Positions 28,796 to 59,966 of a stretch of DNA of 64,000 nt are shown one piece after another (within the stretch, counting starts at the first letter, position 1; each line of letters opens with the position of its first letter). The stretch comes from an uncultured Lachnospiraceae bacterium (GTDB lineage: Bacteria; Bacillota; Clostridia; Lachnospirales; Lachnospiraceae), in the NCBI GenBank assembly GCA_900317755.1, contig ONHZ01000008.1, positions 14,832 through 78,831 on the forward strand, given 5' to 3'. The notes beneath the pieces were generated by a model that saw nothing but the letters and a program-made list of their open reading frames with translations, was not told where the DNA came from and made no database searches. The position numbers and the translations under genes were made by a program.

Positions 28796-28832
28796 TTACA
28801 CGCTCCTTCTTATTAATGTTTATGAAGCAAAC

Positions 28833-28982
28833 GGATTGCTCCATTGCTGAGTAATTTAGCAATCCTACGAACAACTCGAATCTCGACGATTTTCTTCAAA
28901 AATCGTCTTCTTCTCGTTGTTCTTACGGGGCTCAAAGTGGAATTATTCTTTATACGTAAACGTAACAGAATAATTCCACTTT
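28833..28982 (-). other. three strong hairpins in the rpsD-rpoA spacer
   Basis: Stems are GGATTGCT/AGCAATCC (28833-28865), GAACAAC..GACGATTTT/AAAATCGTC..GTTGTTC (28869-28922), and a perfect 16-bp stem AAAGTGGAATTATTCT/AGAATAATTCCACTTT (28934-28982). Confidence 0.7.
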
Positions 28983-29001
28983 TATCCCCTTTTGCTTAAG
29001 G

Positions 29002-42026: not shown

Positions 42027-42341
42027 TTATTTCTCTAACATCTTAATCTTGATGTCAACACCAGCAGGCATTTCAAGTCTTGAAAGTGTCTCTACTGTCT
42101 TCTGTGAAGGAGAGAGAATATCGATAAGTCTCTTGTGTGTTCTCTGCTCGAACTGCTCACGGCTGTCCTTGTACTTATGTACTGCACGAAGGATTGTGAC
42201 AACTTCCTTCTTTGTAGGAAGCGGTACAGGTCCGGAAACTGCGTCTCCGTTCTTCTTTACCGTATCAATAATCTTCTGTGCGGACTGGTCTACAAGCTCA
42301 TGATCATAGGCCTTTAATGTGATACGCATTGTTGCTGCCAT
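42027..42341 (-). CDS. rpsJ: 30S ribosomal protein S10
   Basis: [21 protein letters not shown] ... [12 protein letters not shown]. Start at 42341; the track ORF starts at 42362. Confidence 0.95.
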
Positions 42342-42418
42342 TTTAATGTAACTTCCTTTCAAAAATATGTTATGACTTCTGCCTTTATACGCTTCCGGGT
42401 GTGTCCTGATTTCTCAGT

Positions 42419-42458
42419 AAAAAATAACATCTCTATGGTCAAGCCCTAGAAGATGTCC
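42419..42458 (-). terminator. intrinsic-terminator-like hairpin inside the S10 operon leader (candidate attenuator)
   Basis: Minus-strand RNA forms ACAUCUUCUAGGG-CUUGA-CCAUAGAGAUGU, a stem of about 12-13 bp with one mismatch. It is followed by UAUUUUUU and lies about 75 nt upstream of the rpsJ ATG. Confidence 0.55.
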
Positions 42459-42639
42459 ACGCGGTGTTTCTATTGCGCGGGTAGACTTACGCATACGGCC
42501 TGTCGTCAGGTTCAACTTGACATTTGCTCAGCGTAAAAACCCGATCCGCCATATCTCACACATGCCCGTACATGCCTTTTAAGAAATACGGTTTGCGGCA
42601 ACCTCACGCTTCATAGCTATCAGTGTCACAGCAAGTGCT

Positions 42640-42668
42640 ACTATACAACGGATTTATGTAATTCGCAA
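42640..42668 (-). promoter_or_regulatory. sigma-A promoter of the S10-spc-alpha super-operon
   Basis: Minus strand reads TTGCGA, a 17-nt spacer, then TATAGT. This gives a leader of about 290 nt. Confidence 0.55.
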
Positions 42669-42754
42669 GTAAAATTTATTTTATTTTGTACTTTTTTCGA
42701 TACAAAAATATTTTTTCATTTTAGCAACCAATTTCTATAATGTGGTAGCTGTTT

Positions 42755-43660
42755 TTATAAAAAGGTAACCCGTCCAGATGCTCCACATGGTAAAACAAGC
42801 CCTGATGCGCTGACAGGCAGCCCGACTTCATCAGAATCTACATTAAAATCCTTGTAGCCAGCTTCGGAAATTGCCGTTGAAAGCATATAGGTGAGTACGC
42901 CTGGCTGGAGGCCAGTGGTATAGGAATTTACAAGGAAGAATAACGGCTTTTCAGAAAGAAGCGATGCGCACTTCTGAATCAGTGGAAAGATCGCATCCTC
43001 AATCTTCCAGATTTCACCCTTCGGCCCGCGGCCGTATGAAGGCGGATCCATGATAATTCCATCGTATTTATTGCCTCGGCGGATTTCCCTCTCGACGAAC
43101 TTTGTACAGTCGTCAACGAGCCAGCGGATCTTTGCATCGGCCAGGCTGGAAGAGTTTGCATTCTCATGTGCCCAGGTCACCATGCCCTTTGAGGCATCGA
43201 CATGTGTAACGGATGCTCCGGCAAGGGCAGATGCTATCGTGGCGCCTCCTGTATAAGCAAAGAGATTTAAGACCTTTATTTCACGCTCTGGATTTTTTTC
43301 TGCTGCACCATTTATAATAATAGAAGAAAACCATTCCCAGTTCACTGCCTGTTCAGGAAAAACACCGGTGTGTTTGAACTTGAAAGGCTTCAGATGAAAG
43401 GTCATCTCTTTATTAATAGAAGAAAGTGGATAATGTATCGTCCATTCCTCCGGAAGATCAAATATCTCCCACTCACCGCCGCCCTTGTCAGACCTGTGGT
43501 AATGGCCATTTAAGTGCTTCCACTGCGGGATGCTTTTCTTCGTGTTCCAGATGACCTGCGGATCCGGACGGAGCAGTATATATTTTCCCCAGCGCTCAAG
43601 CTTCTCGCCATCCGAGCAGTCGAGCACTTCAAAATCTTTCCAATTCTCTGCAATTCTCAT
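42755..43660 (-). CDS. class I SAM-dependent methyltransferase (RlmI/RlmK-like catalytic domain, no PUA)
   Basis: VLNLFAYTGGATIASALAG (SAM motif I) and IIMDPPSYGRG (motif IV). Confidence 0.75.
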   Translation of the reverse strand: MRIAENWKDFEVLDCSDGEKLERWGKYILLRPDPQVIWNTKKSIPQWKHLNGHYHRSDKGGGEWEIFDLPEEWTIHYPLSSINKEMTFHLKPFKFKHTGVFPEQAVNWEWFSSIIINGAAEKNPEREIKVLNLFAYTGGATIASALAGASVTHVDASKGMVTWAHENANSSSLADAKIRWLVDDCTKFVEREIRRGNKYDGIIMDPPSYGRGPKGEIWKIEDAIFPLIQKCASLLSEKPLFFLVNSYTTGLQPGVLTYMLSTAISEAGYKDFNVDSDEVGLPVSASGLVLPCGASGRVTFL

Positions 43661-43671
43661 GATATTTCCTG

Positions 43672-44349
43672 TCAGCTCTTATTCTTTTCCTTAAGCAGCG
43701 GCTTTAATTTCTTATATACTGCGCTGGATTTCTTCGTGTCCTTGTAAAGCTTTGAAAGTCCATTTGCGATTGATGACTTCGTCTTGTACTGATTAATAAT
43801 AGAAAGAACTTCTGATGGGTTCTCTTCTTCAGAAACTAATGCGCTGATTTCAGAAAGCGTTGCCAGATCCTTTGAAGCAACCTTGCTCTTCTTGGCGGCT
43901 TTCTTTTTGCCAGTGCTCTCAGCCTGATCATTATTTATTTTGACAGAAGACTTTTGAGGGGACTGTACAACCTTCGCCTTCTTCTTCGCATCCGCTCCGG
44001 AGAATGAAGCCCTGCGCACCTTGATATCCATATTTTTCCAGAAAGACCGGAGGCAGTCATAACCCGTGTCATGTGAAACAATAATATATTCAGAATCGCC
44101 CTGGTATTTTCCAATCAGATATCCTAAATATGAGGTGAGCTGAAAATCAAGTGCATTTTTCGTCCCGGCACTTACCTTCATCGTTTTAAAATTCGCACCC
44201 TTCTTCAATACCTCCTCAATAAAGTCGAGCGAAATGTTTTTTCTGTTTTCAGAGAAAAACATGACAATCGTGTCGCCCGTTGAGACGCCATCGAGATTCT
44301 TCATGTCATCTGTGCTGATATTTTCAAAATCAACAAGAAAGTAATTCAT
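43672..44349 (-). CDS. NYN/PIN-like (LabA/DUF88-like fold) protein with a Lys-rich linker and helical tail
   Basis: N-terminal FLVDFENI and IIVSHDTGYD match the NYN pattern (xDxxN ... SxDxD), followed by a KKKAKV...KKKAAKKSK linker. The assignment is by motif only. Confidence 0.55.
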   Translation of the reverse strand: MNYFLVDFENISTDDMKNLDGVSTGDTIVMFFSENRKNISLDFIEEVLKKGANFKTMKVSAGTKNALDFQLTSYLGYLIGKYQGDSEYIIVSHDTGYDCLRSFWKNMDIKVRRASFSGADAKKKAKVVQSPQKSSVKINNDQAESTGKKKAAKKSKVASKDLATLSEISALVSEEENPSEVLSIINQYKTKSSIANGLSKLYKDTKKSSAVYKKLKPLLKEKNKS

Positions 44350-44415
44350 TTTTTCTCCTTACAAAACGATGTCGAAAATGGTTCCTTTCAAAGAAATCCA
44401 AACCTTCATATATAA

Positions 44416-45882
44416 TTAGAAGATACTGTCATACAGATCTCTTCCGTACGCTGTCTCCTCCGGAAGCCCCGGGACAATCTTAAACGTGCGCTGTCCTCCT
44501 GACATTCTCTCTGCCTTCAGGAATACTGACTCGTCCTTCATATGCTCAAGGACATTCTCTGCAAAGGTAAAGAAATGTGTTACGAAGAAAACTTCAATAC
44601 CGTCTTCGACAAGTGCATTCACAATTTCACGGCAGATTTCAGAACCTTCCCTTTCATTTGTAGACTGGAAAGATTCGTTAAACAAAATCAGCGCATTGCT
44701 TCTGATCCTGTCTGCAATCCCACTCATGCGGAGCAGCTCTTCATCAAGCTTGCCGCTCTTCATCGTCCTGTCCTCAAGCTTTGAAAAGTGAGTGAAGATT
44801 CCACTTACCACATGGCTCTCGAAGCTTTGTGCCATGACAATACATCCAGACTGAGCCATCATCTGGGCCTGTCCGATACTTCGAAGAAATGTGGATTTTC
44901 CGCCCTGATTTGCACCGGTAATAATATATAGTGATTTTCCTTCAGAATCAATATCATTATGTACTGCATTTTCACCCGAAAGCACAACGGTCGCTTCGCT
45001 AAGCCCTGCTATATGGCGTTTTTTCATAGTTGAATCAGAAATCAACGGCATACAGTATGATACATTCTTCTCTTTCAAAGTATCTGTGAGGTTTAAGACA
45101 CCAATGTAAAATCCAATTTCTGTCTGAAGCCTGAAAAGAAAATCCTTCACATTTCCAGCCGCCTCTGTCAGTGTGTCAACGCTCTGGCTCAGTGCAAGGT
45201 TCGTCCTGTCAGAAATATCTTCCATTCCTGATTCATCATTTACAGCCAGCGTCACCTTCGGTGCCATCTTCCATTTTATTTTGTTGTCCTCAGAAGTCTT
45301 TCGGAGGAGCTGATAACCTGCAAGCGATGCATCATTATCGAAGGTAAGACCAAGCAGCATTCCATCCTTGAATTCGAGCTCGGACACAAGGTCTTTTGCC
45401 TTTCTTATGAAATCGTCATCGATTTCCTCCTTGATTTCTGAAAGCAGTCTGTTCATTCCATAAGAAGAAAATGCATTTTTATTCTGGTCTGCAAATTTGC
45501 GAAGCTCCTGTAAAAATGGTATGAAGCCTTCAAGGACAGAAACTGCACTCTGAAATCTCGTCGTAAGAATCTGCGAATTCAGCCAGTAGTCCTGCTTTTT
45601 CGTAGCATCAAGAGCTTCGGATGCAATTTCATAAAGCTTCTTAAATTCCTTCGGTTTTGCAAATGCATCATTTAGGATTTCCTGACGATATGTGATTTCC
45701 GAGCTATCAGTAAGATACCGAAACATTACTTTGCGTACTGCGCCATAAATCACGTCATCGCCCTTTGCCATTGCCTTGAAAATAATGTCCAGTGAAAGAT
45801 CAGAATTCAGGGGCTCGATTTCTTCTTCAGTCAAATCATCAAGATTGAAATCGCTGTTTTTTAATAAAAGATAGACGTTCAT
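44416..45882 (-). CDS. MutS-family ABC ATPase lacking mismatch-binding and nuclease domains (paralog B)
   Basis: Walker A is GANQGGKSTF, the MutS-like region is SGKLDEELLRM, Walker B is ALILFNE, and a VTH motif is present. Its start overlaps the stop of paralog A (ATGA at 45879-45882). Confidence 0.8.
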   Translation of the reverse strand: MNVYLLLKNSDFNLDDLTEEEIEPLNSDLSLDIIFKAMAKGDDVIYGAVRKVMFRYLTDSSEITYRQEILNDAFAKPKEFKKLYEIASEALDATKKQDYWLNSQILTTRFQSAVSVLEGFIPFLQELRKFADQNKNAFSSYGMNRLLSEIKEEIDDDFIRKAKDLVSELEFKDGMLLGLTFDNDASLAGYQLLRKTSEDNKIKWKMAPKVTLAVNDESGMEDISDRTNLALSQSVDTLTEAAGNVKDFLFRLQTEIGFYIGVLNLTDTLKEKNVSYCMPLISDSTMKKRHIAGLSEATVVLSGENAVHNDIDSEGKSLYIITGANQGGKSTFLRSIGQAQMMAQSGCIVMAQSFESHVVSGIFTHFSKLEDRTMKSGKLDEELLRMSGIADRIRSNALILFNESFQSTNEREGSEICREIVNALVEDGIEVFFVTHFFTFAENVLEHMKDESVFLKAERMSGGQRTFKIVPGLPEETAYGRDLYDSIF

Positions 45883-47441
45883 TTTGCAAGCCTTTCTTTT
45901 AAATCACTATAGGTAAGATGGTATTTCCTTGCAATATCCTCGGCATAGGCAATGCCATCCGAAGCCCTGCGTGAAATATGATAGCTCCGCTCACCCGGAA
46001 TATCCTTATTTATCCCGGCAACATAGCTTACCGTATGCTCATCAAATGTCGAAAGTTCATCAAGGAAGGTGACTGAAAGTGCAAGGCATCCTTTTTCAGA
46101 AAGATCCTTCATCATAATTCTTCCAAGCTCAAGTGCATCCTTCAGTGTCGTAGAAGAAAATATTTCATTAATAATAAGTACGCTTCGATTTGTGGTCTTT
46201 TCAAGAATGGATTTTAACCTTATGAGTTCATCCTTTAATTTACCATCGTGAGCCACTGCATTTTCTTCCATATTAAAATGCGTGAAGATGTGATCGGGAA
46301 GGAACATCTTTGCTGCGCTCCCTGGTACTGAAAGCCCCAGCGATGCAAGATAGAAAAACTGGCCAAAGCTTCTTGCAAATGTAGTCTTGCCTCCCTGGTT
46401 CGGACCGGTAAGGACGATGATCTTTTCAGGAGAATGAAGTTCAAAGCTGTTTGTCACAGGATGATTTTCTTCGAATACGAGATTTCTCGCAAGCACTAGG
46501 TCAAAACAATCTTGGCAGAAAACATCCGTCGTATCGTTTGAAATTTCCGGATAACAGAAAGAAAGTCCTGTCCTTTTTACAGATGAAATATAAGTCTGCC
46601 AGGAAAGATAAAAATGAACTTCACGTGAAAAACGGCTGACAGTCTTGTCATTAAAATAAAGATGCTTTGTAATAAATTCATCTAATTCCTTGAATACATC
46701 CTTATTCCACTGGGCAATCATGGAATATAAGTCACGGCTCACATTCGGGGAAATCCTGCTCTCACTCATATGCTCGCTCGTATATCTTTTTTCACCATTG
46801 ATATTGAATCGCGAAAAGAGGCTCTCAATCTCAGTATTCATATTCCGCTGGTCATCAAATGGTCGGATATTGACTGTCCTGTCGCTCACGCGCATGACGA
46901 CGTTAATATTCTGAAATTTTCCAATGAGATCCTTCGTATCACGGTAAAAATCCTGGAAATCAGGTGATGAAGCATAGTCTGCCAGGTATTCATTAAAAGC
47001 CCGAAGGCCCCTCGAAAGAATCCGCTTGCCTCTCACGAAATTTGCCATATTCAAGATAATACGGCAGTACCTGTTCGCAAGCCCGAGTGCACCTGCCTTC
47101 AGGTAGTAATCATTCTCAAATCCATGAAGCTTGGAGAGCTTCGTCTGAATCTCTGCCATCTTCTCTTCCGTCTCGTTTATGTTCTCGGCGAAAGAATGAT
47201 AAAGCTCAAAAAAATCCGCATTGTCAAAATCCCTGCAGATTTCCTGGCGATACCTTACCGCCTCAATATCCGTAAGCGGCTGATAATAGACATCGGAAAA
47301 GCCATAGGCTTCATTTGACTTTATGAGCTTATCAAATACCTGGTCAAGATTCAGATTCAAGAATTTTCTCTCACCAGAATCTTCTTTTTCACTACCTTCA
47401 ACCTGTGGAGATTCATAGAGAATACTGTAAAATTCCTTCAT
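45879..47441 (-). CDS. MutS-family ABC ATPase lacking mismatch-binding and nuclease domains (paralog A)
   Basis: Walker A is GPNQGGKTTF, the MutS-like region is DGKLKDELIRL, and Walker B is VLIINE. The N-terminal ~330 aa is helical and carries no domain I motif. Confidence 0.8.
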   Translation of the reverse strand: MKEFYSILYESPQVEGSEKEDSGERKFLNLNLDQVFDKLIKSNEAYGFSDVYYQPLTDIEAVRYRQEICRDFDNADFFELYHSFAENINETEEKMAEIQTKLSKLHGFENDYYLKAGALGLANRYCRIILNMANFVRGKRILSRGLRAFNEYLADYASSPDFQDFYRDTKDLIGKFQNINVVMRVSDRTVNIRPFDDQRNMNTEIESLFSRFNINGEKRYTSEHMSESRISPNVSRDLYSMIAQWNKDVFKELDEFITKHLYFNDKTVSRFSREVHFYLSWQTYISSVKRTGLSFCYPEISNDTTDVFCQDCFDLVLARNLVFEENHPVTNSFELHSPEKIIVLTGPNQGGKTTFARSFGQFFYLASLGLSVPGSAAKMFLPDHIFTHFNMEENAVAHDGKLKDELIRLKSILEKTTNRSVLIINEIFSSTTLKDALELGRIMMKDLSEKGCLALSVTFLDELSTFDEHTVSYVAGINKDIPGERSYHISRRASDGIAYAEDIARKYHLTYSDLKERLAK

Positions 47442-47495
47442 TTAGTCCCCTTTTATCACAATATTTTCTTTATAAACAATGGTAATATATCCCAA

Positions 47496-47535
47496 AACAT
47501 ATTGCCATTTTCATTGAAAAAAAAGCAATATTGTT
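47496..47535 (-). terminator. imperfect inverted repeat between the kinase operon and the MutS-like operon (weak terminator or operator)
   Basis: AACATATTGC / GCAATATTGTT arms with a 19-nt loop. On the minus strand they are followed by TTTGGG. Confidence 0.3.
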
Positions 47536-47595
47536 TTCATAAAACTTATGATAATACGAGAACAAAAAATAAACAAGTTAAAAAAACTGAATTAT

Positions 47596-49101
47596 TTAAT
47601 ATTTTCTATTTACACTTGATAACCGTTCAAAAGCCGAAAATATAAGGAAGACGGCAAATGCCATCACAATAAAAAATATGGCAAAATTCTGATTTACTGT
47701 AACCGAAAAAAGTCCTGGATTTGCAATTTCTGACGAAAGATAGGTCACTGTAATAAGCATCGTAAGAAAAAACGGAACCGCCTTGATCATCCATTCAGAT
47801 GAGAACAGCAAAAGTAAAAATATTAATTTCCAGATAGAAAACCCAGTCGAAAAAATCAGAAATGCATCAAAAATATAAATAAACAGACTGATAAAAGTAT
47901 CTGCATTTTTTTGAATAATTGAGATAAAGAAATCTACAATGAAAATCACAAGCAATATCTTTATTATTGTACTTTGACAGACGGTCTCAAAAAGCTGAAC
48001 CCATACTGGCTCGACTGAAATATCCTTTGGAGCAGAATAACATAGGAAAACTGCCGCTACGGTAAGCATAATAAAACCTGCGAATGCAAAATAACTTCTA
48101 TTATTTATGGCAGCACCCATGGGCTTATGAAAGATCAGTTTTCGAAGTTCATGAATGACTTCATCCATTGACTGGTACCGGTCATCAGGATCATAAGCTG
48201 TCATTTTTAAGATTATTTTTGAAAAAGCTTCAGAAGCTTTTGACGGAGCAGGAAATTCTGTATCTCGCGAATACTGTTTCTCGATACATGGACTGCTTTC
48301 GTCAGAAAATGGAAATCGCATTTTATTCATCAGGACATAGAGTACCATGCCAAGCGAATATTCATCAATAAGTGAGTCATATTCTTCCTCACCATTTATT
48401 TTTAATACCTCAGGCGCAGCATAACCATTTGTATATATTGTCGTCTCAGCAAGTCCGGTCTCTGTCACCTTTGACATACCAAAATCGCCAAGACAGTATT
48501 TCTTCATGCTCTCATGATAAAAAATATTTTCAGGCTTGATGTCCCTGTGAATCATGCCTTTCTTATGAATGTCCCTGAGTGCTAATGCAATATCAAATGC
48601 AAGCGAAAGCACTTCCTTCTCGTTGCCATTATTTAATGCATCCGGCACAAAAAAACTTCTGCCATTTTTCCGGTACTGTTTTATCGGAACAAGTTTCTCC
48701 ATCAGGATGAATTGAAGGCGAAGAGACTTGGTCTCTGTATTATTACTTACATTCCCGGCCTTTATGGAAGTAATCTGATCTGAATCATCGAAGCCAATAT
48801 TTAGCTCGATAAATTTGTAAATATGAATAATATGAAAGGTCACGAAACCCTTGACATGATTTATATTCTCTCCAAAGCCATTTTTATCATAGTTCTGCCC
48901 GTTGAAACCAATCACCTTCAACGCATATTCAGTATCCGGCTTTCCTTTCTTCTGAACAGCATAAATAAAAGCAGATGAACCCTTTCCTATTTCTATAGGA
49001 AATCCGTTTTCTCTTTTCAGAGAATAATCAGAAAAAGGGTATCCCTGCTTTTCAAGTTCATTAAGAATTGAATTTCTTTCAGCTCTATTCCAAATTTCCA
49101 T
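47596..49101 (-). CDS. Hanks-type Ser/Thr protein kinase with a C-terminal polytopic membrane domain
   Basis: GKGSSAFIY (Gly loop), YALKVI (Lys), HRDIKPENIF, GDFGMSK, and GYAAPE. These are followed by about 6 hydrophobic helices with no PASTA repeats. Confidence 0.85.
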   Translation of the reverse strand: MEIWNRAERNSILNELEKQGYPFSDYSLKRENGFPIEIGKGSSAFIYAVQKKGKPDTEYALKVIGFNGQNYDKNGFGENINHVKGFVTFHIIHIYKFIELNIGFDDSDQITSIKAGNVSNNTETKSLRLQFILMEKLVPIKQYRKNGRSFFVPDALNNGNEKEVLSLAFDIALALRDIHKKGMIHRDIKPENIFYHESMKKYCLGDFGMSKVTETGLAETTIYTNGYAAPEVLKINGEEEYDSLIDEYSLGMVLYVLMNKMRFPFSDESSPCIEKQYSRDTEFPAPSKASEAFSKIILKMTAYDPDDRYQSMDEVIHELRKLIFHKPMGAAINNRSYFAFAGFIMLTVAAVFLCYSAPKDISVEPVWVQLFETVCQSTIIKILLVIFIVDFFISIIQKNADTFISLFIYIFDAFLIFSTGFSIWKLIFLLLLFSSEWMIKAVPFFLTMLITVTYLSSEIANPGLFSVTVNQNFAIFFIVMAFAVFLIFSAFERLSSVNRKY

Positions 49102-49104
49102 AAA

Positions 49105-49659
49105 TCATTTTTTCTGAAAGAGATTCAGATTGCCTTTAAGAAAGAGAATATTATTAGAAACCAGGAACATACCATCTAATGTTCTTTTGAATGCATATAA
49201 TCCCAGATCCTTAAGTTCAAAATTTATATTGCCATCATTTACTACGAAATCGTTTCTGTTCGTAATATCATATATACGCCAGTCCTCGTCATAGTCCTTC
49301 TTCAGGAATACAGCAAAAATCAGAAATCCTGACAGATAAAAGCTGTCGCCACTGCCGAAGACAAGTGTAAATGAATCATCCATAATCTTTGGTGAACGCC
49401 GTCCATCGAAGCCGGCATTTATCTTTTTTCCATTTAAATAAGTACCATTCAGACTATTTAAATCAGTGTAAAACCAGATGCCGTCCTTCATCTCAAATAC
49501 GCCCTGCTCACGGCTGACTGTCTTCAGGCTGACAGAAATATCCGGATGATTGTCCTCAGTCTGCCTGCCGACAGTCCATCTAGGCTTCTCATCGAGATTG
49601 TACTCTTTGATTCTTCCACTCTCCAATACAAGTAATTTGTTGCATGAGATTTCACTCAT
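49105..49659 (-). CDS. FHA domain protein
   Basis: WTVGRQ ... SREQGVF ... SLNGTYLNGKKI carries the FHA GR / SxxH-like / NG signature. The C-terminal ~80 aa is unassigned. Confidence 0.8.
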   Translation of the reverse strand: MSEISCNKLLVLESGRIKEYNLDEKPRWTVGRQTEDNHPDISVSLKTVSREQGVFEMKDGIWFYTDLNSLNGTYLNGKKINAGFDGRRSPKIMDDSFTLVFGSGDSFYLSGFLIFAVFLKKDYDEDWRIYDITNRNDFVVNDGNINFELKDLGLYAFKRTLDGMFLVSNNILFLKGNLNLFQKK

Positions 49660-50680
49660 CGTTTATGCCCTCCAATTCTTTCAAAAAATCCTTGACTTCC
49701 GGATCATCAAATTCACGGAAAATATCAAGCGTATATCGCAATAAATCATCTGGATCAAAATAGTTTTCTGAACTGTTCTGGTTCGTTTCAAAATGACTGT
49801 CCGGACGAAGCCTGCCCTCCATCTCTGCACTGTCAAGTGCAAACATAATCAGCCCTTCAAATGTATTTTTTGAATAAAGCGGCTCCATATGTGCAAGCTG
49901 TAAAAGCTCGTCAACCTCCTCATGCGTCATGCTGAGATGAATGCCAAGAGAAATGATCTTGTTCCTGTTTGGATGCCAGGTGCCATTCTTTATTTCATAA
50001 ACTGTATGCTTTAGTGATGATGACCATCCCTGTCCCAAAGAAAGTTTCTCAACATTTTCAGTATAATTTGCTGCAATAAACATATTTACCGCTGCAAAGA
50101 GCTTTGAATATGCTTTTGAAAAAACGTTGCTATTTTCAATGATAAACCGCTGCAATGCATCCTCATTCCTGACTTCGTACAGCTTTTGATTAACGATTTC
50201 TGTACTGATATCCGGAGAATCGCTTCCTTCTATATTTAACGTCTCGGCATTTATTTTTTCAAGAATCTCATCGTATTTTTCAGACCTGGTTTCAGGCGGC
50301 TCGTTCTTTATTACATAAATCGCCACACAATCACCCAGCGTCTTTGAATAAAGTTCCGAATACCGTCCATATCTCGTAAGGAGCTTATTTGTCTCTGGCA
50401 GATCATATCCTGCCACAAGCGCAACTTCAATAAATTTCTCCCTGTCTCTAGGTATAGACCCTTTCAGCCATTTGTCAAGCATTACACGGCTCACATGGCA
50501 TTTCTCTGCAAATACCTTCTTTGAAAGTGGACTTTCACTTACGATTTCATTAATCTTTTTCTGCCATAGATTTTTCTGATCCTGAATCATGGGTAGCACG
50601 ACCTCCTTCAGTTCATCGATGTCTTCACATCTGGAAATCTGATCCTTCACAAAAATTGTTTCATTTGAGATATTTATCAT
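49652..50680 (-). CDS. HTH-containing protein with two internally repeated modules
   Basis: LSKKVFAEKCHVSRVMLDKWLKG resembles an XRE-type HTH. A second related module lies around residues 215-285. Its stop overlaps the FHA gene start by 8 nt. Confidence 0.6.
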   Translation of the reverse strand: MINISNETIFVKDQISRCEDIDELKEVVLPMIQDQKNLWQKKINEIVSESPLSKKVFAEKCHVSRVMLDKWLKGSIPRDREKFIEVALVAGYDLPETNKLLTRYGRYSELYSKTLGDCVAIYVIKNEPPETRSEKYDEILEKINAETLNIEGSDSPDISTEIVNQKLYEVRNEDALQRFIIENSNVFSKAYSKLFAAVNMFIAANYTENVEKLSLGQGWSSSLKHTVYEIKNGTWHPNRNKIISLGIHLSMTHEEVDELLQLAHMEPLYSKNTFEGLIMFALDSAEMEGRLRPDSHFETNQNSSENYFDPDDLLRYTLDIFREFDDPEVKDFLKELEGINDE

Positions 50681-50709
50681 CTCGTGCTCCCATGTTATCA
50701 GAAAAAAGC

Positions 50710-51510
50710 TTATTTATTTTGCAGTTCAAGTTTACTAAGTACTTCGAGCCTGTTATAGTAGCTTGCTATCACAAAAACAAATAATGCAGCAAATATGATG
50801 CCTATATGATAATCGTATATTTTGTGAAGAAATGCAAGATGTCTTGTAATATTTTGAAGATCAAAAAATAAAAGTCCTATACCAAGAGTGGCAAATGCAA
50901 GTGATGCTGTTTTGAATTTTTTATGGATGAAAACCGCTGCAGAAATAAGTATGAGTACAAGCATAATAATATTCCAGAAAGGCAGAGGCTTTGAATGAGG
51001 AATAAAGCCTTCGAAGGATAAAAAAGACAAGATCACTGCAGCAATAAAGTCTTCAATATACTGGACCTGATAGTCTTTTTTAATAATGTCCATTTCCAGA
51101 AGACGCTCTGCTCTCGTAGATGAGTCATTGCAGGACGCTTTCGCTTTTCCGTCACCACCTGCTTGTGCTGTTATGTCACCACTGGCACGTACTGTTTTAT
51201 CACCAATGGCCTGTACTGTTCCGTTGCCAATTACCTGTGCTGTTTCATTACCATCATTAATTTCCTGCGCCAATCCAACAGCATCGGTTTCAAAGCTCCT
51301 CTGTTTTTTATAGAACTCAAAATTAGAAAAAATCTCATGAATCTGATATATGTCCGAGAACCGATACTTCTGTTCAAAAGCACACATTTGGCGCACAAGA
51401 TCATTCAATGAATTTGAAAAACTGCTGCACTGTGGAAAAACATAACCTTTAAAAAATAAACTGCTATACTTCCTACAAATGATTTGGAACTTTTTATTTT
51501 TGTTCCTCAT
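50710..51510 (-). CDS. membrane protein resembling the C-terminal tail of the neighbouring kinase (N-terminally truncated paralog, possibly a remnant)
   Basis: SLNDLVRQMCAFEQKYRFSDIYQIHEI resembles the kinase C-lobe end (compare SKIILKMTAYDPDDRYQSMDEVIHEL in 47596-49101). An 8-aa repeat tract and TM helices follow. There is no catalytic core and no clear RBS. Confidence 0.5.
   Translation of the reverse strand: MRNKNKKFQIICRKYSSLFFKGYVFPQCSSFSNSLNDLVRQMCAFEQKYRFSDIYQIHEIFSNFEFYKKQRSFETDAVGLAQEINDGNETAQVIGNGTVQAIGDKTVRASGDITAQAGGDGKAKASCNDSSTRAERLLEMDIIKKDYQVQYIEDFIAAVILSFLSFEGFIPHSKPLPFWNIIMLVLILISAAVFIHKKFKTASLAFATLGIGLLFFDLQNITRHLAFLHKIYDYHIGIIFAALFVFVIASYYNRLEVLSKLELQNK
51133..51252 (-). 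repeat. five tandem 24-nt (8-aa) repeats inside the 50710-51510 ORF
   Basis: The protein reads GNETAQVI GNGTVQAI GDKTVRAS GDITAQAG GDGKAKAS. Confidence 0.75.
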
Positions 51511-51579
51511 TCATTTGATAGTTGAAGTATAGCAGTAATTTTTTAAGGGTTTTTCAGCTGAAGTTTACACTAGAAGCAT

Positions 51580-51771
51580 TCAGTGCACGTATCTTGCCCT
51601 GTATTCCATATTGATGTCTTTGATTTCCTTCTCACCATTGATGTAGGCTTCATACATGTCTGCCTGACCGCAGGCACCACAGCCATCACATGAACCACAG
51701 CCACCAAGGGCTTCAGAAACTATTTTTGCCCGCTCTTCTCGAGTAGTATCCTTTATCAATATACTCTGCAT
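51580..51771 (-). CDS. hypothetical 63-aa protein with a CGSCDGCGACG cluster
   Basis: MQSILIKDTTREERAKIVSEALGGCGSCDGCGACGQADMYEAYINGEKEIKDINMEYRARYVH. There is a GGAGG RBS, and the start was moved from 51879. Confidence 0.55.
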   Translation of the reverse strand: MQSILIKDTTREERAKIVSEALGGCGSCDGCGACGQADMYEAYINGEKEIKDINMEYRARYVH

Positions 51772-55139: not shown

Positions 55140-55577
55140 ATGGATGTTCTTACAAAAGCCCAACGCCGCAAAGCCATGCAGCATATCCGCGGCAAGGATA
55201 CAAGCATTGAAGTAAAACTGAGAAAAGCCTTGTGGCATAAAGGTTATAGATATAGAAAAAATTATAAAAAGCTGCCTGGCTCACCTGATATTGCAATCAC
55301 AAAATATAAGATTGCCATATTCTGCGACAGTGAATTTTTTCATGGCAAAGATTTTAGCGAAAAGAAGGAAAAAATACAAAACGGAACCCATGGTGATTAT
55401 TGGGTAAATAAAATCGATGCAAATATTGAACGTGATTTGCGAACAGATAAAGATTTGGCTTCTTTAGGCTGGACAGTCCTTCACTTCTGGGGAGGAGAAA
55501 TAAACAAAAACCTGGATGAATGCGTAAAGACTGTAGAGGAAGAAATATTTAAGAAAAAAATTGAGGGAGACAAATAA
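55140..55577 (+). CDS. vsr: very short patch repair endonuclease
   Basis: RRKAMQHIRGKDTSIEVKLRKALWHKGYRYRKN ... PDIAI ... IFCDSEFFHG is a typical Vsr sequence. Confidence 0.9.
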   Translation: MDVLTKAQRRKAMQHIRGKDTSIEVKLRKALWHKGYRYRKNYKKLPGSPDIAITKYKIAIFCDSEFFHGKDFSEKKEKIQNGTHGDYWVNKIDANIERDLRTDKDLASLGWTVLHFWGGEINKNLDECVKTVEEEIFKKKIEGDK

Positions 55578-55578
55578 T

Positions 55579-56634
55579 ATGGATAAATACAACGCCATAG
55601 ACTTATTTTGCGGATGCGGTGGGCTATCATATGGTTTCCAACAAGCCGGATTTAATATATTGCTTGGTATAGATAATGATGCTAAAGCATTAGAAACATT
55701 TGAGTTAAATCATAAAGGTGCAAAATCTATTTGTGGGGATATTACCCAAATAACCTATAACGAAAATATCAAACCATTAATAGGTAATAAGACCATTGAT
55801 ATTATTATCGGAGGTCCACCATGTCAGGGCATGTCATTATCAGGATTTCGAAAACTGGATGATCCACGTAATAAACTTTATTTATCCTATATTAGGCTTG
55901 TGAAAGAAATTCAGCCCAAAGCTTTTGTTATTGAAAATGTACCTGGTCTAGTAGAACTATTTGGAGGGCAAATAAAGGACAGCATTATTGAAAAACTTCA
56001 ACAACTTGGATATGATGTCCAATATAAAATATTATTAGCATCAGATTATGGCGTACCACAAAATAGACGTAGGGTTGTTTTTGTAGGTGTAAAAAAAGGT
56101 GTATTTAGTTATCCTAATACCTCAAAAAAAATTGTGACCTGTAAAATGGCATTGTCCGATCTTCCACCATTAACTGATGAATTAGGGACCGAAGAACAAG
56201 ATTATTATACTGCCCCTACAAATGCATATCAAAAGCTAATGAGAATCAACTCTAAGAAGGTTTATAATCATATTGCAGCAAACCATTCCGAAAGAGTAAA
56301 GAAAATCATTTCTATGGTACCTGCTGGTGGAAATTATAAAGATCTACCTGAAGAATATCGTCACACAAGAAACTTTCATGTAGCTTGGACTAGATTTCCT
56401 GATGACAAGCCTGCCCCAACTATAGATACTGGTCACAGACATCATTTTCATTATGAATATAATCGTGTTCCAACTGTAAGAGAATGTGCAAGAATCCAGT
56501 CTTTCCCAGATGATTTTATCTTTCAAGGAAATAAAACCCAGCAGTTCAGACAAGTAGGAAATGCGGTTCCACCGATTATGGCAAAAGCAATTGCAGATTC
56601 AGTAAAGGATTGTTTGGATAAAAATTATGAGTGA
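55579..56634 (+). CDS. dcm: DNA (cytosine-5)-methyltransferase 1
   Basis: Motif I is DLFCGCGG, motif IV is GGPPCQGMS, motif VI is ENV, motif VIII is QNRRR, and motifs IX-X are RECARIQSFPDDF..GNAVPP. The ATG lies 1 nt after the vsr stop. Confidence 0.9.
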   Translation: MDKYNAIDLFCGCGGLSYGFQQAGFNILLGIDNDAKALETFELNHKGAKSICGDITQITYNENIKPLIGNKTIDIIIGGPPCQGMSLSGFRKLDDPRNKLYLSYIRLVKEIQPKAFVIENVPGLVELFGGQIKDSIIEKLQQLGYDVQYKILLASDYGVPQNRRRVVFVGVKKGVFSYPNTSKKIVTCKMALSDLPPLTDELGTEEQDYYTAPTNAYQKLMRINSKKVYNHIAANHSERVKKIISMVPAGGNYKDLPEEYRHTRNFHVAWTRFPDDKPAPTIDTGHRHHFHYEYNRVPTVRECARIQSFPDDFIFQGNKTQQFRQVGNAVPPIMAKAIADSVKDCLDKNYE

Positions 56635-58090
56635 ATACAAAATTCCAGAAGAATATTATTTCAGAATACATCATGTCAGACCACGTTTTAAAGGTGATAT
56701 TGAGAATGTACTTATTTTTGTTGCTGAAGAGATCTCAAGAATAGGTAAACTACCAAGGGACCAATTTGTTGAAGCAGTAGATAATGCTATATATAAATAT
56801 CCTGGAAATGCTCATAGGGAAATAAAGACAATAAATAACTGGCGTACTGAAATTTCTGCATTATTTGGTTTTATCGAACATGATGATGATAATGACAAAC
56901 CTGGGAAACGAGCTCTTGAACTAGCTGAGCATCAAGATTTGGTGCAGTTTTTTAAAATCTTTTTATATAATTTTCAATATCCCGGTGCGCATATTAAACC
57001 TTCAAGTGTTATTGAACAAATTAATGCAGGAATACATTTTAAACCCGCACAATATATACTAAAAGTATTACGATATGCAAATAAAAACGGTGGAAATGCA
57101 ATAGGCATTACTAAATTTGAAGCATGCCATTGTATTTTTAATGATCTTAGGGTAACTAGAGATAATGAAGGCGTAGAAAAAACCTGGGAACGAATATCGA
57201 AAAACAGAAAAAATCGTTATACATATGATCAAACAGGTGATGTAATCAGGTATGCCGGAGACATCATTGATTATATGGAAATTGCGAATCTATTAAAAAC
57301 TTATGATGGACGAACCTATTACCTAAATACCCTCGAAGAAGAAACTATTATCAAATTCTGTGAATCCAATGAATGGTTTGACGGATATGATACAATGATA
57401 AAGAATCGTTATGCTGACATTGATAGCGTAAAAAAATGTACTAATCCTTGGTTTACTTATGTAAATCGAAATATGGATAATACAGATTTCTCAACAGATA
57501 TTCTAGCATTTATTGCTGCAGATGAAGACGAATTAAATACTCTAAAATCAGCTACGGAACATACTGTTAATGCAAAATTAACAGATTTTATTAATCGAGA
57601 GGATGAATTCTCTAGAAGAATTGCATCTTATCAAGATGAATTTACAACTAAAGATATTGGGGATATAGGAGAAGGCCTTGTACATGGGCATGAATGTATG
57701 AGAGTAAAATTAGGCGGTAGAGAAGATCTAATACATCTAATAAAACGTATCCCAACACAATTTGCAGTAGGATATGATATTGGCTCTGTTGAACTTGATG
57801 GGCGCAAGCGTTTTATTGAAGTAAAGACAACGATTAGTTCAAAGCCTTTACACTTTAATAAAGTTCATCTTACTTCAAATGAATGGAATACTGCAAGCAG
57901 TACACATGACCGATATTTTATTTATAGATTAATGATAAGCAAAAATGAGAGAAAACTATTTCTCTTACAGGACCCAGTCGGTCTTTATAAACAAGACAAA
58001 ATAGAAATGGTTCCACAAGATGGAGCTGATATTACATTTGATCCAAACAAAGTCGGAACTTTTGAGGAGCTATTAACATGGAAAAATTGA
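56627..58090 (+). CDS. putative restriction endonuclease with a C-terminal PD-(D/E)xK (DUF3883/NOV_C-like) domain
   Basis: VGYDIGSVELDGRKRFIEVKTT fits D...ExK, and DRYFIYRL is typical of DUF3883-like domains. It overlaps both flanking MTase genes. Confidence 0.6.
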   Translation: MSEYKIPEEYYFRIHHVRPRFKGDIENVLIFVAEEISRIGKLPRDQFVEAVDNAIYKYPGNAHREIKTINNWRTEISALFGFIEHDDDNDKPGKRALELAEHQDLVQFFKIFLYNFQYPGAHIKPSSVIEQINAGIHFKPAQYILKVLRYANKNGGNAIGITKFEACHCIFNDLRVTRDNEGVEKTWERISKNRKNRYTYDQTGDVIRYAGDIIDYMEIANLLKTYDGRTYYLNTLEEETIIKFCESNEWFDGYDTMIKNRYADIDSVKKCTNPWFTYVNRNMDNTDFSTDILAFIAADEDELNTLKSATEHTVNAKLTDFINREDEFSRRIASYQDEFTTKDIGDIGEGLVHGHECMRVKLGGREDLIHLIKRIPTQFAVGYDIGSVELDGRKRFIEVKTTISSKPLHFNKVHLTSNEWNTASSTHDRYFIYRLMISKNERKLFLLQDPVGLYKQDKIEMVPQDGADITFDPNKVGTFEELLTWKN

Positions 58091-59037
58091 AAGTAGCATC
58101 TTTATTCTGTGGCTGCGGAGGCACAGATGTAGGTCTCCTTGGAGATTTCAATTTTCTAAATAAATACTATGAATCTAATCAGGTAGAAATCGTTTATGCA
58201 AACGACATTGATGATAATGCATGCAAAATCTTTCAAAAGAACTTTGACATTACTCCTGATAACAGAGATATTCGAGAAGTTAAGTCTTCTGAATTGCCAG
58301 AATTTGATATTTTGACTGGTGGCTTTCCATGTCAATCATTTTCGATCGTTGCACAAAATCCCAAAAGATTGGGAATAAAAGATGATAGGGGAAAACTTTT
58401 TTTCGAAATGTGCAGAATTCTTCGTGACAGGCAGCCAAAATGTTTTATAGCTGAAAACGTCAAAGGAATTTTAACGGCGAATAATAAAGAAGCTTTTCCA
58501 TTGATAATAAAGGAATTTGAAGATAGCGGATACGATGTAAAATATTCGATATTAAATTCTGCAAACTTCGGAGTACCTCAAAAGAGAGAACGTGTTATTA
58601 TTGTCGGTTTTAGAAAAGACCTTAACATTGACTTTAAATTTCCAGAGGTACCTATTGAAAACGAAGATGATTATGTTCCTTTGCAGGAAGTAATCGATTC
58701 TGTTGTTGATGATAAATACTATTTTAGCGACAAGGCTGTTGCAGGTATGATGCGAAACAGAGACAGTATGAATAAGGGTAGAGCTCAAGATATTACAAAA
58801 CCATGCAATACTGTCGGAGCACATCTTGCAAAAGTATCACTAAACAGCACTGATCCAGTATTAAAAATTGGTGATAGATATAGAAGATTTACGCCTAGAG
58901 AAGTCGCACGCATCCAATCATTTCCTGAAAAATTTAGCCTGATTGGATCGGAAGGTGCACAATATCGTGCATTAGGTAATGCTATTCCACCTGTAATGCT
59001 CTGGTATGTTGCAAGAGCTGTGATATCAATAATATAA
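58078..59037 (+). CDS. DNA (cytosine-5)-methyltransferase 2
   Basis: SLFCGCGG, GGFPCQSFS, ENVKG, QKRERV, and REVARIQSFPEKF..GNAIPP. Confidence 0.9.
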   Translation: MEKLKVASLFCGCGGTDVGLLGDFNFLNKYYESNQVEIVYANDIDDNACKIFQKNFDITPDNRDIREVKSSELPEFDILTGGFPCQSFSIVAQNPKRLGIKDDRGKLFFEMCRILRDRQPKCFIAENVKGILTANNKEAFPLIIKEFEDSGYDVKYSILNSANFGVPQKRERVIIVGFRKDLNIDFKFPEVPIENEDDYVPLQEVIDSVVDDKYYFSDKAVAGMMRNRDSMNKGRAQDITKPCNTVGAHLAKVSLNSTDPVLKIGDRYRRFTPREVARIQSFPEKFSLIGSEGAQYRALGNAIPPVMLWYVARAVISII

Positions 59038-59048
59038 AGGAGAAATAA

Positions 59049-59966
59049 TTGGGTAGTCCGAAGGCAAAAACTGTAAAAATACTATTAGACGATGGGTCTC
59101 TTAATGGCATTATTAACATCGTTGATTCTAATTGGAATACTGGAGAAATGTATATCGCTCCAAGAATTTCAATTGATAAATTATTATCCTCGGAAGCATG
59201 TAATAAATTCGGAGTATATTTACTATTGTCTGAAGATAAAGTTTATGTTGGTCAATCTTCCGATCTAGCAAAAAGAGTCAAACAACACATAGCCGGTAAA
59301 AGCTGGTGGGAAAGAGTTCTAATATTAACAACTTCTGACGATAGTTTAACGCGCTCCGATATCGACTATCTTGAATATTATTTAATCCGAAAGGCAAAAA
59401 ATAGTAATAAACTTGACAACGAAAATAAAAACAAAGGTAATACTCCAAAAGTTGACAAGTTCAGAAAACCAGAATTGGAACAATATCTTGAGGAAGCCTT
59501 ATTTCTTATGGAGCTTATTGGCATTTCTGTATTTGCTGACAAAAACAAATCCAATAAATTGCCAAAGAAACCTACAAGCAAAAAACAACAAACAACAGAT
59601 TCAAATATCATAATAGAAAAAAAGAAACAGGCAGTTACTTTTCTCCAAGAAAAGGGATATTGCATTGGAAAAAATGTCAATTATGCTAAACTTCTGGAAA
59701 ATAATGACGTGTTTTGGATAAATTCTAGAATAGAAGTATTAACTAATGAATGGAACATTATCTTAAATGATCAGCCCTCTCACACAATAACTTATCTCAA
59801 AGTGCCGCCAAATACATTTCATATTACAAACAATGTCGAAGAATATGGATTATTTTTGAGAAACGACAAACCATCACTTGACATAAATATTCAAAATAAA
59901 TCCTATATCGAACGAAGAAGCAAATGTGACTTCTCTAAATATATTATTGCAACCATAAAATATTGA
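59049..59966 (+). CDS. GIY-YIG nuclease family protein with a C-terminal extension (DUF4357-like architecture)
   Basis: GVYLLLSEDKVYVGQSSDLAKRVKQH ... DIDYLEYYLIRKA gives the GIY-YIG core. It uses a TTG start 6 nt after AAGGAG. Confidence 0.7.
   Translation: MGSPKAKTVKILLDDGSLNGIINIVDSNWNTGEMYIAPRISIDKLLSSEACNKFGVYLLLSEDKVYVGQSSDLAKRVKQHIAGKSWWERVLILTTSDDSLTRSDIDYLEYYLIRKAKNSNKLDNENKNKGNTPKVDKFRKPELEQYLEEALFLMELIGISVFADKNKSNKLPKKPTSKKQQTTDSNIIIEKKKQAVTFLQEKGYCIGKNVNYAKLLENNDVFWINSRIEVLTNEWNIILNDQPSHTITYLKVPPNTFHITNNVEEYGLFLRNDKPSLDINIQNKSYIERRSKCDFSKYIIATIKY

Follow-up and report, generated by a model that had tools for sequence, protein, structure and literature searches.

What does a pair of overlapping MutS-type ATPase genes do in an uncultured Lachnospiraceae bacterium, and does the nuclease-like gene behind them belong to the same system? 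We addressed this question for a 64,000-nucleotide (nt) stretch of contig ONHZ01000008.1 (hereafter the window), in which the two ATPase genes, termed A and B, are followed on the same strand by genes for a PIN7/NYN-like protein and a methyltransferase. A first-pass annotation had read the first three genes as an undescribed nucleic-acid surveillance or defence module, consisting of a heterodimeric MutS-like sensor and a nuclease supplied in trans. Our analysis favours another answer. We consider it likely that A and B are the MutS4A/MutS4B pair, members of a fluoride-linked family of heterodimeric clamps, that the copy in the window has been decoupled from fluoride control, that the PIN7 protein is an accessory neighbour, and that the block is no anti-phage system.

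The two paralogous open reading frames (ORFs) were confirmed at 520 and 488 amino acids, with a TGA/ATG overlap between them (Table 1) that suggests translational coupling. Pfam assigned a single domain to each product, MutS_V (1.3e-16 for A and 1.9e-19 for B), and A can be aligned to B, its paralogue, along almost the entire sequence (22% identity, residues 29-452, E-value 2e-24). For A, we computed an AlphaFold2 model from a 68-sequence alignment (predicted local distance difference test (pLDDT) 85.6, predicted template-modelling score (pTM) 0.83). The model is composed of long helices up to about residue 290, with a β-hairpin at residues 181-194 between them, the α/β ATPase and two terminal helices; the helical N-terminal ~300 residues described earlier were thus recovered except for the one hairpin. 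In Foldseek, the alignments of the model to MSH2, MSH3, MutS2 and the MutS proteins of E. coli and Taq extended over some 550 columns (E-values 1e-16 to 1e-18). Based on the model and this alignment, A is predicted to comprise only the MutS core (lever), a small clamp and domain V, and to lack domains I and II as well as an Smr domain. Each subunit of the pair retains core, small clamp, ABC ATPase and a C-terminal helix pair, whereas the mismatch-binding and connector domains are absent. Pfam and the structural comparison accordingly agree with the initial description of both proteins as domain-V-type ATPases devoid of domain I and of a nuclease.

We compared the nucleotide-binding motifs within the family, across 74-81 loci, and with those of solved MutS2, MSH3 and MutS structures aligned by HMMER. 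The Walker A motif reads GPNQGGKTT in A and GANQGGKST in B. In the Walker B motif, Asp-Glu is changed to Asn-Glu in A (N425-E426) as well as in B, and this exchange is family-wide. The STF signature is replaced by GKL in both proteins, with B reading SGKLDEEL. A TH-like motif had been ascribed to both ATPases; B indeed keeps the histidine, but in A it is exchanged for a phenylalanine (TF, F459) that is invariant in the family. Owing to these departures in the Walker B, signature and TH motifs, an A:B dimer should contain two unlike nucleotide sites, both with unusual Mg2+ coordination.

To place the pair in a broader context, we screened the GTDB, at one genome per species, for A-specific peptide patterns and surveyed the best 80 of at least 595 confirmed stretches. 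The 80 loci span Bacillota, Chloroflexota, Acidobacteriota, Verrucomicrobiota, Actinomycetota, Proteobacteria, Spirochaetes and a few bins labelled archaeal. An A-type and a B-type ORF were present at every locus, the two types being separable by score (A 340-424 bits, compared to 70-100 bits for the other type). B directly followed A in 76 cases, overwhelmingly with a 4-nt ATGA or GTGA overlap, and three of the four remaining loci apparently end at a contig end just past A. The gene directly 3' of B varied from locus to locus, indicating that the pair, and not a larger operon, is the conserved unit. An exhaustive search yielded 773 clusters at 50% identity (E-value <=1e-30), and the 1026-amino-acid metagenomic protein P0335 was found to join A and B end to end, its B part being 34% identical to the window protein over the full length. 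P0335 may be a genuine fusion or may have arisen artificially, through misassembly or a frameshift at the 4-nt overlap.

These features fit a subfamily that is already in the literature. Lin, Nei and Ma (2007, Nucleic Acids Res 35:7591, PMC2190696) described MutS4A and MutS4B as adjacent MutSac-domain genes in which the stop of one overlaps the start of the other. At that time, the MutS4 subfamily comprised five bacterial and two archaeal species, including Thermoanaerobacter tengcongensis, the Chloroflexus group and Thermoplasma/Ferroplasma, and its function was unknown (PMC2190696). Our 80 loci likewise include a Thermoanaerobacter sp., many Chloroflexota and several bins labelled archaeal. 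The window proteins carry the MutS ATPase only, without MutS-I, MutS-II or Smr, and their genes are paralogues on one strand with the same stop/start overlap. With taxa, architecture and gene organisation all in agreement, the window pair fits MutS4A/MutS4B and is hence not undescribed; what sets this copy apart is its lineage-specific PIN7 neighbour and the adjoining S10 operon. MutS4A/B is an ancient bicistronic unit found in many bacterial phyla and some archaeal genome bins. It is reasonable to propose, as was done earlier, that A and B form a heterodimer, an idea that the 2007 description already implied; the adjacency and overlap at 76 of the 80 loci and the single A-B fusion are consistent with it.

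In other bacteria, the conserved partner of the pair, as a sequence association, is the fluoride riboswitch. At the Rfam gathering score, RF01734 lies just 5' of A on the same strand in 8 of the 11 more distant loci that were scanned. We then built a covariance model of our own from ten RF01734 matches and ran it over all loci (1.44 Mb, E-value <=1e-3). The model returned 134 fluoride-riboswitch matches, with at least one in 63 of the 80 loci; a same-strand aptamer was located within 300 nt 5' of A in 37 loci and 0.3-2.5 kb 5' in 17 more. Matches that Rfam missed at its gathering score were called as fluoride at 28.9-33.8 bits, against 34, in Rfam's E-value mode. Around several MutS4 pairs the aptamers form dense "fluoride islands" (L022, L041, L020, L036, L078 and others, ~21 kb each), with up to eight matches per 21 kb in L022 and L041, on both strands and each apparently heading a different gene.

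The genes that recur beside the pair emerged when the ORFs from all 80 loci were clustered. Enolase was found at 30 loci, a dynamin-family GTPase of ~560-590 amino acids at 27-32, an MFS transporter and DUF190 each at 17-19, and CrcB at 17, a neighbour set from which we suspect a fluoride regulon. Further recurring neighbours were Usp proteins, formate-hydrogenlyase-type subunits and a His_Phos_1 phosphoglycerate-mutase-type protein. In other phyla, A/B homologues thus sit directly 3' of the aptamer, among crcB, enolase, DUF190 and formate-hydrogenlyase-type genes. The dynamin GTPase (Dynamin_N 5e-33) is often placed directly 3' of B or just 5' of A, and we know of no description that links bacterial dynamin-like proteins to the fluoride response. 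Baker and colleagues reportedly listed MutS-related genes among those controlled by fluoride riboswitches (Science, 2012). The association itself has been in print since 2010, when the crcB motif was observed in the 5' untranslated regions of genes "involved in DNA repair (mutS)" (Weinberg et al., 2010, PMC2864571), and it was restated later (Sherlock and Breaker, 2020). Apart from the 2010 paper, full-text searches on fluoride, riboswitches and MutS brought up reviews only.

Taken together, these observations suggest a mechanism. Through the ATGA overlap, the cell would produce A and B at similar levels, and the two proteins would assemble into an asymmetric MutS-like heterodimeric clamp with two composite nucleotide sites. 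With Asn in place of the Mg2+-coordinating Walker B Asp, Mg2+ coordination should be weaker in both sites. Since this Asn is present at both sites and the TH histidine in B only, A:B is probably a slowly hydrolysing, nucleotide-gated switch, and mismatch sensing should not be its role. Under fluoride poisoning of Mg2+-dependent phosphoryl transfer, a nucleic-acid or nucleoprotein structure may build up on which the clamp closes. Because the pair in most other lineages lies behind a fluoride riboswitch and among fluoride-response genes, the most likely conserved job of the family is to limit a consequence of this poisoning of phosphoryl-transfer reactions. One might speculate that the Walker B Asn also renders the sites less prone to metal-fluoride trapping, or that the clamp acts on other substrates, such as stalled ribosomes, as MutS2 does, or a fluoride-inactivated enzyme, in the manner of KamC.

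The copy in the window departs from this regulon. No fluoride riboswitch was detected in the window by Rfam at gathering score or by our covariance model, and none over positions 47300-51700 at E-values up to 10. No other Rfam family was found 5' of A either; a "ylbH leader" match at 47338-47473 reached 23.5 bits against a gathering score of 50 and was taken as chance. Likewise, phmmer searches with representatives found no homologues of crcB, enolase, DUF190, MFS, Usp or dynamin in the 64 kb. The same absence of riboswitch and nearby fluoride genes applies to three related loci, namely L091, from the same species (A 99.8% identical to that of the window), L081 (49%) and L084 (43%), where A-B stands alone. 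Further Clostridia differ in context: L093 has a riboswitch followed by A-B and enolase, and L095 has a HIT protein, A-B, ribosomal protein S21, RecJ and RelA. Directly 5' of the MutS4A gene of L095 (2536-2606, plus strand), a fluoride-aptamer match of 12.8 bits (E-value 0.35) includes the sequence GCCGATGACCCCTGC, with a terminator-like hairpin behind it, and may represent a riboswitch that has degenerated or diverged. We infer that the window copy lost riboswitch control together with its fluoride neighbours, and predict that it is expressed without fluoride control. Its ORFs are intact, A and B carry all family-invariant residues, and the window proteins occur verbatim on more than 100 public contigs, implying intact genes and a common organism.

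We next consider the PIN7/NYN-like protein. The first-pass annotation had described a 225-amino-acid protein 66 nt 3' of B with an NYN/PIN-like domain, a Lys-rich linker and a helical tail, and all of these features were recovered. PIN7 (PF18475) matches residues 5-107 with 88.7 bits against a cut-off of 34 (E-value 4.7e-25), and the AlphaFold2 model (pLDDT 82) displays an α/β domain at residues 1-117, a disordered Lys-rich linker at 118-152 and a conserved, confidently predicted helical tail at 160-221. The linker and the tail are additions to the PIN7/NYN domain. The PIN7 family comprises 458 proteins at E-values up to 1e-3, of which we know no characterised member. Across 41 family sequences, D7, E9, D26, K64, N65, D68, S92, D94 and G96 are invariant, bearing out the anticipated nuclease-like acidic site (D7, E9, D26, D68, D94), and 23 of the 41 also match Pfam NYN. 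Foldseek hits of the model were weak and split between the MARF1 NYN domain (E-value 8.4e-3) and CARF domains, for example that of Csm6 (2.9e-3). "NYN/PIN-like with acidic site" is therefore a fair description of this predicted nuclease.

As a partner of the ATPases, however, the protein did not hold up. We detected no PIN7 gene within ±10 kb of the pair at any of the 80 loci, using phmmer with the window protein and a hidden Markov model from 120 homologues (E-value <=1). Of the co-occurrence to be expected from a three-gene module with a nuclease in trans, the part concerning the two adjacent ATPases stands and the part concerning the NYN/PIN gene falls. The methyltransferase, kinase, FHA and 342-amino-acid proteins of the window were not conserved partners at any of the 80 loci either. 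PIN7 homologues with ~50% identity were located between a relaxase and a resolvase beside a type I restriction-modification (RM) system (L085), among Bro-N, HTH, RelB/ParE and Fic genes (L087), and in an unrelated context (L088); remoter homologues reside on conjugative enterobacterial plasmids and a Selenomonas plasmid. Given its absence from all 80 loci and these mobile-element contexts devoid of a MutS pair, PIN7 is a lineage-specific accessory neighbour typical of mobile elements and not a built-in effector of the pair. No nuclease partner common to the family emerged.

The history of the block in its own lineage was reconstructed by comparison with the two close relatives. Besides the window, the order A-B-PIN7-methyltransferase is kept solely in L081 and L091, with the S10 operon next in L081. 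Between the window and L081, S10 is 100% identical, L2, L3 and L4 ~98%, the methyltransferase 85%, PIN7 74%, B 61% and A 49%, and synteny stops just 5' of A. As the ribosomal proteins of L081 are 95-100% identical to those of the window, the shared A-B-PIN7 order reflects recent common descent and gives no evidence of selection for linkage. Compared to the conspecific L091, most 150-nt windows are 99-100% identical outside a single tract, in which B and most of the PIN7 gene drop to 70-86% nucleotide identity (from ~45900 to 43780). The tract edges are sharp, falling at the A/B junction and near the PIN7 3' end, where the 150-nt segment just outside the downstream edge is 96% identical. The synonymous divergence (dS) is 1.44 in B and 0.85 in PIN7 within the tract and 0.003 in A, and the ratio of nonsynonymous to synonymous divergence (dN/dS) is 0.05 for B and 0.10 for PIN7; for A against L081, it is about 0.19 with dS saturated. 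In our reading, homologous recombination brought in the B-PIN7 tract as a divergent allele on which purifying selection continues to act. Diversifying selection on the tract was ruled out by the low dN/dS values at a dS of 0.85-1.4.

Several of these findings weigh against the fluoride-linked interpretation of the window copy. Missing both riboswitch and fluoride genes, this copy may now have a role different from that of riboswitch-controlled copies. In its lineage, A-B-PIN7-methyltransferase exists in three allelic forms with spacers of 9-66 nt, and the exchange of B and PIN7 in one recombination tract leaves some room for a local functional link. Moreover, neither biochemical nor genetic studies of MutS4 proteins turned up in the searchable literature, so that the proposed substrate and the tie to fluoride physiology derive from context only. 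One could picture the pair of this gut Clostridia lineage as a MutS4A/B clamp freed from fluoride control and co-operonic, at the head of the S10 operon, with an NYN-type nuclease (PIN7) as effector and an rRNA methyltransferase, where B-PIN7 is exchanged between strains as one cassette and the trio surveys RNA, ribosomes or foreign nucleic acid. We regard this as unlikely; if true, it would constitute a new use of a MutS paralogue, comparable to that of MutS2 on collided ribosomes.

A related alternative assigns the pair in this Clostridia lineage to MutS2-like quality control of RNA or ribosomes, with PIN7 supplying the RNase activity and with functional ties to the neighbouring rRNA methyltransferase and S10 operon. 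Bacterial MutS2 is a recombination suppressor and a sensor of collided ribosomes, and NYN domains are often RNases. The MutS2 core 7vuf is the closest solved sequence relative of A (E-value 5.8e-16), and the sequence and fold matches include 7qv3, the entry for MutS2 with a collided disome from Bacillus subtilis. Like A and B, MutS2 lacks domains I and II and keeps core, clamp and ATPase. In contrast to the two-gene pair, which has no Smr domain and an N-E Walker B motif, MutS2 forms homodimers, carries an Smr nuclease at its C-terminus and retains the canonical D-E in Walker B; neither Smr nor KOW domains are present in A or B. The MutS2 profile TIGR01069 gave 45.3 (A) and 53.6 (B) bits against a cut-off of 400, and membership in MutS2 was rejected. 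The genomic surroundings are similarly divided. In this lineage, the block is directly 5' of the rRNA-type methyltransferase and the S10 operon, and the L095 pair is followed by S21, RecJ and RelA, whereas the contexts of L084 and L093 are unrelated to translation and the S10 adjacency is confined to very close relatives. We judge this alternative improbable.

The model of the first-pass annotation, in which A:B senses foreign or branched nucleic acid and PIN7, perhaps together with the methyltransferase, acts as the nuclease in trans, draws on several of the same observations. The tight same-strand order is kept in L081 and L091, but these genomes share ribosomal proteins that are 95-100% identical, and common descent explains the synteny. 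B and PIN7 were jointly replaced by a divergent allele within the species, and A (49%) and B (61%) diverge much faster than their neighbours between close relatives; the imported allele, however, is under strong purifying selection and shows no diversifying sign. PIN7 does carry the full invariant acidic set, in a family that partly matches NYN, and an RM island lies ~8 kb off; yet PIN7 is missing within 10 kb of the pair at all 80 loci from other lineages and occurs alone in mobile elements, the block is wedged against the S10 operon, and the conserved context of the relatives is a fluoride riboswitch regulon, not a defence island. As anticipated in the first-pass annotation, no named defence system was matched: PADLOC-DB v2 gave 0 matches for A and the PIN protein, and for B only weak P-loop matches to NsnB, mad8 and PtuA (E-values 2.6e-5 to 1.3e-3). 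A PHROGs search returned nothing informative. The defence model is thus very unlikely, and we conclude that the block is not an anti-phage system.

The eukaryotic MSH4-MSH5 complex, cited in the first-pass annotation as a clamp on branched DNA, is a MutS-paralogue heterodimer that has no domain I but retains domains II-V. A and B are much shorter and form a separate prokaryotic subfamily, the likeness being one of analogy only; MSH4 and MSH5 have been placed within the MutS1 lineage (Lin et al., 2007, PMC2190696). MutS1 itself was rejected for A and B, with NCBIfam MutS scores of 70.7 (A) and 62.9 (B) bits against a cut-off of 480, restricted to the C-terminal part, and no MutS_I or MutS_II in Pfam.

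A further comparison concerns KamC, the reactivase ATPase of lysine 5,6-aminomutase, which is the best NCBIfam match of B (E-value 6.9e-21), ahead of MutS, and which demonstrates that MutS-type ATPases can have non-DNA roles. Were the pair a KamC-like reactivase, restoring an inactivated enzyme and playing no part in nucleic-acid transactions, repair of fluoride-poisoned enzymes such as enolase would fit the adjacency to the enolase gene at 30 of the 80 loci. However, the NF052383 scores of 53.1 (A) and 74.6 (B) bits are far under the cut-off of 300 and cover the ATPase region only, excluding the two proteins from the KamC family; the lever and clamp of nucleic-acid-binding MutS proteins are kept, and we noted no aminomutase among the neighbours of the pair that carry a Pfam annotation. 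We therefore see only a remote chance for this explanation. Least credible is a decaying, non-functional remnant under relaxed constraint after riboswitch loss, as the missing fluoride elements and the 49% identity of A between genomes with 95-100% identical ribosomal proteins might suggest, given that both ORFs are intact with all family-invariant residues, that dN/dS is low for B (vs L091) and for A (vs L081), and that identical proteins recur on the many public contigs.

Returning to MutS4A/B as a proposed fluoride-linked clamp family, the window locus adds one more regular member to a family already described and matters little alone. MutS4A/B, in turn, is among the most widespread MutS paralogue types without known function, and its tie to the fluoride riboswitch, together with the Walker B Asn, offers a testable handle on what fluoride damages besides enolase and pyrophosphatase. 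The family is thus a good, under-studied target for fluoride biology, for which the riboswitch-free copies of gut Clostridia represent natural controls.

Table 1. Positions of the genes, RNA elements and other features discussed; coordinates refer to the window unless a locus handle precedes them.
Feature	Position	Strand	Basis or remark
Gene A, MutS4A-type subunit, 520 amino acids	47441..45879	minus	ORF
Gene B, MutS4B-type subunit, 488 amino acids, paralogue of A	45882..44416	minus	ORF
A/B ATGA stop/start overlap	45879-45882	minus	sequence
PIN7/NYN-like protein, 225 amino acids, 66 nt 3' of B	44349..43672	minus	ORF and Pfam
Class I S-adenosylmethionine (SAM)-dependent methyltransferase, 301 amino acids, 11 nt 3' of PIN7 gene	43660..42755	minus	ORF and Pfam
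S10-Clostridia ribosomal protein leader RF03136	42500-42622	minus	Rfam, 54.7 bits
AT-rich intergenic region 5' of A	47442..47595	minus	without fluoride riboswitch
Divergent tract vs conspecific contig L091, B and most of PIN7 gene	43780..45900		nucleotide comparison
Kinase/FHA cluster: transmembrane-anchored Ser/Thr kinase, FHA protein, 342- and 266-amino-acid proteins	47596-51510	minus	
RM island: C5 cytosine methylase, BpuJI-N/NOV_C endonuclease, second C5 methylase, GIY-YIG protein	55561-59966	plus	
Clostridiales-1 RNA RF01699, small RNA motif of unknown function	28825-28997	minus	Rfam, 87.5 bits
Dynamin-family GTPase, examples	L002:13047-14816, L016:13391-15133, L037:13039-14817, L031:13068-14717, others		

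Downstream of PIN7, the SAM methyltransferase named in the first-pass annotation was confirmed 11 nt further on. Its Pfam match is Methyltrans_SAM, it resembles the methyltransferase domains of RlmI and RlmK, and one source labels it a 23S rRNA (cytosine1962-C5)-methyltransferase. The S10 leader begins ~130 nt past this gene and is followed by rpsJ, rplC, rplD, rplW, rplB and the remaining S10 operon. Promoter and terminator scans of 42300-47700 were uninformative, with sites no more frequent than in shuffled sequence.

The FHA/kinase and RM neighbours were likewise present as described, the FHA and Ser/Thr kinase genes at 47596-50680 and the RM island being ~8 kb from the pair where ~7 kb had been estimated. 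No Pfam match was obtained for the 342- and 266-amino-acid proteins of the kinase/FHA cluster; outside the window, the kinase/FHA genes occur with the pair in L091 only, and the cluster is missing from L081 despite the 95-100% identity of the ribosomal proteins. The RM island has a GC content of ~0.33, and genes for an acetyl-CoA hydrolase/transferase and a PucR-type regulator lie between it and the pair. In L091 (198-4811), a second kinase occupies the place of the 266-amino-acid protein.

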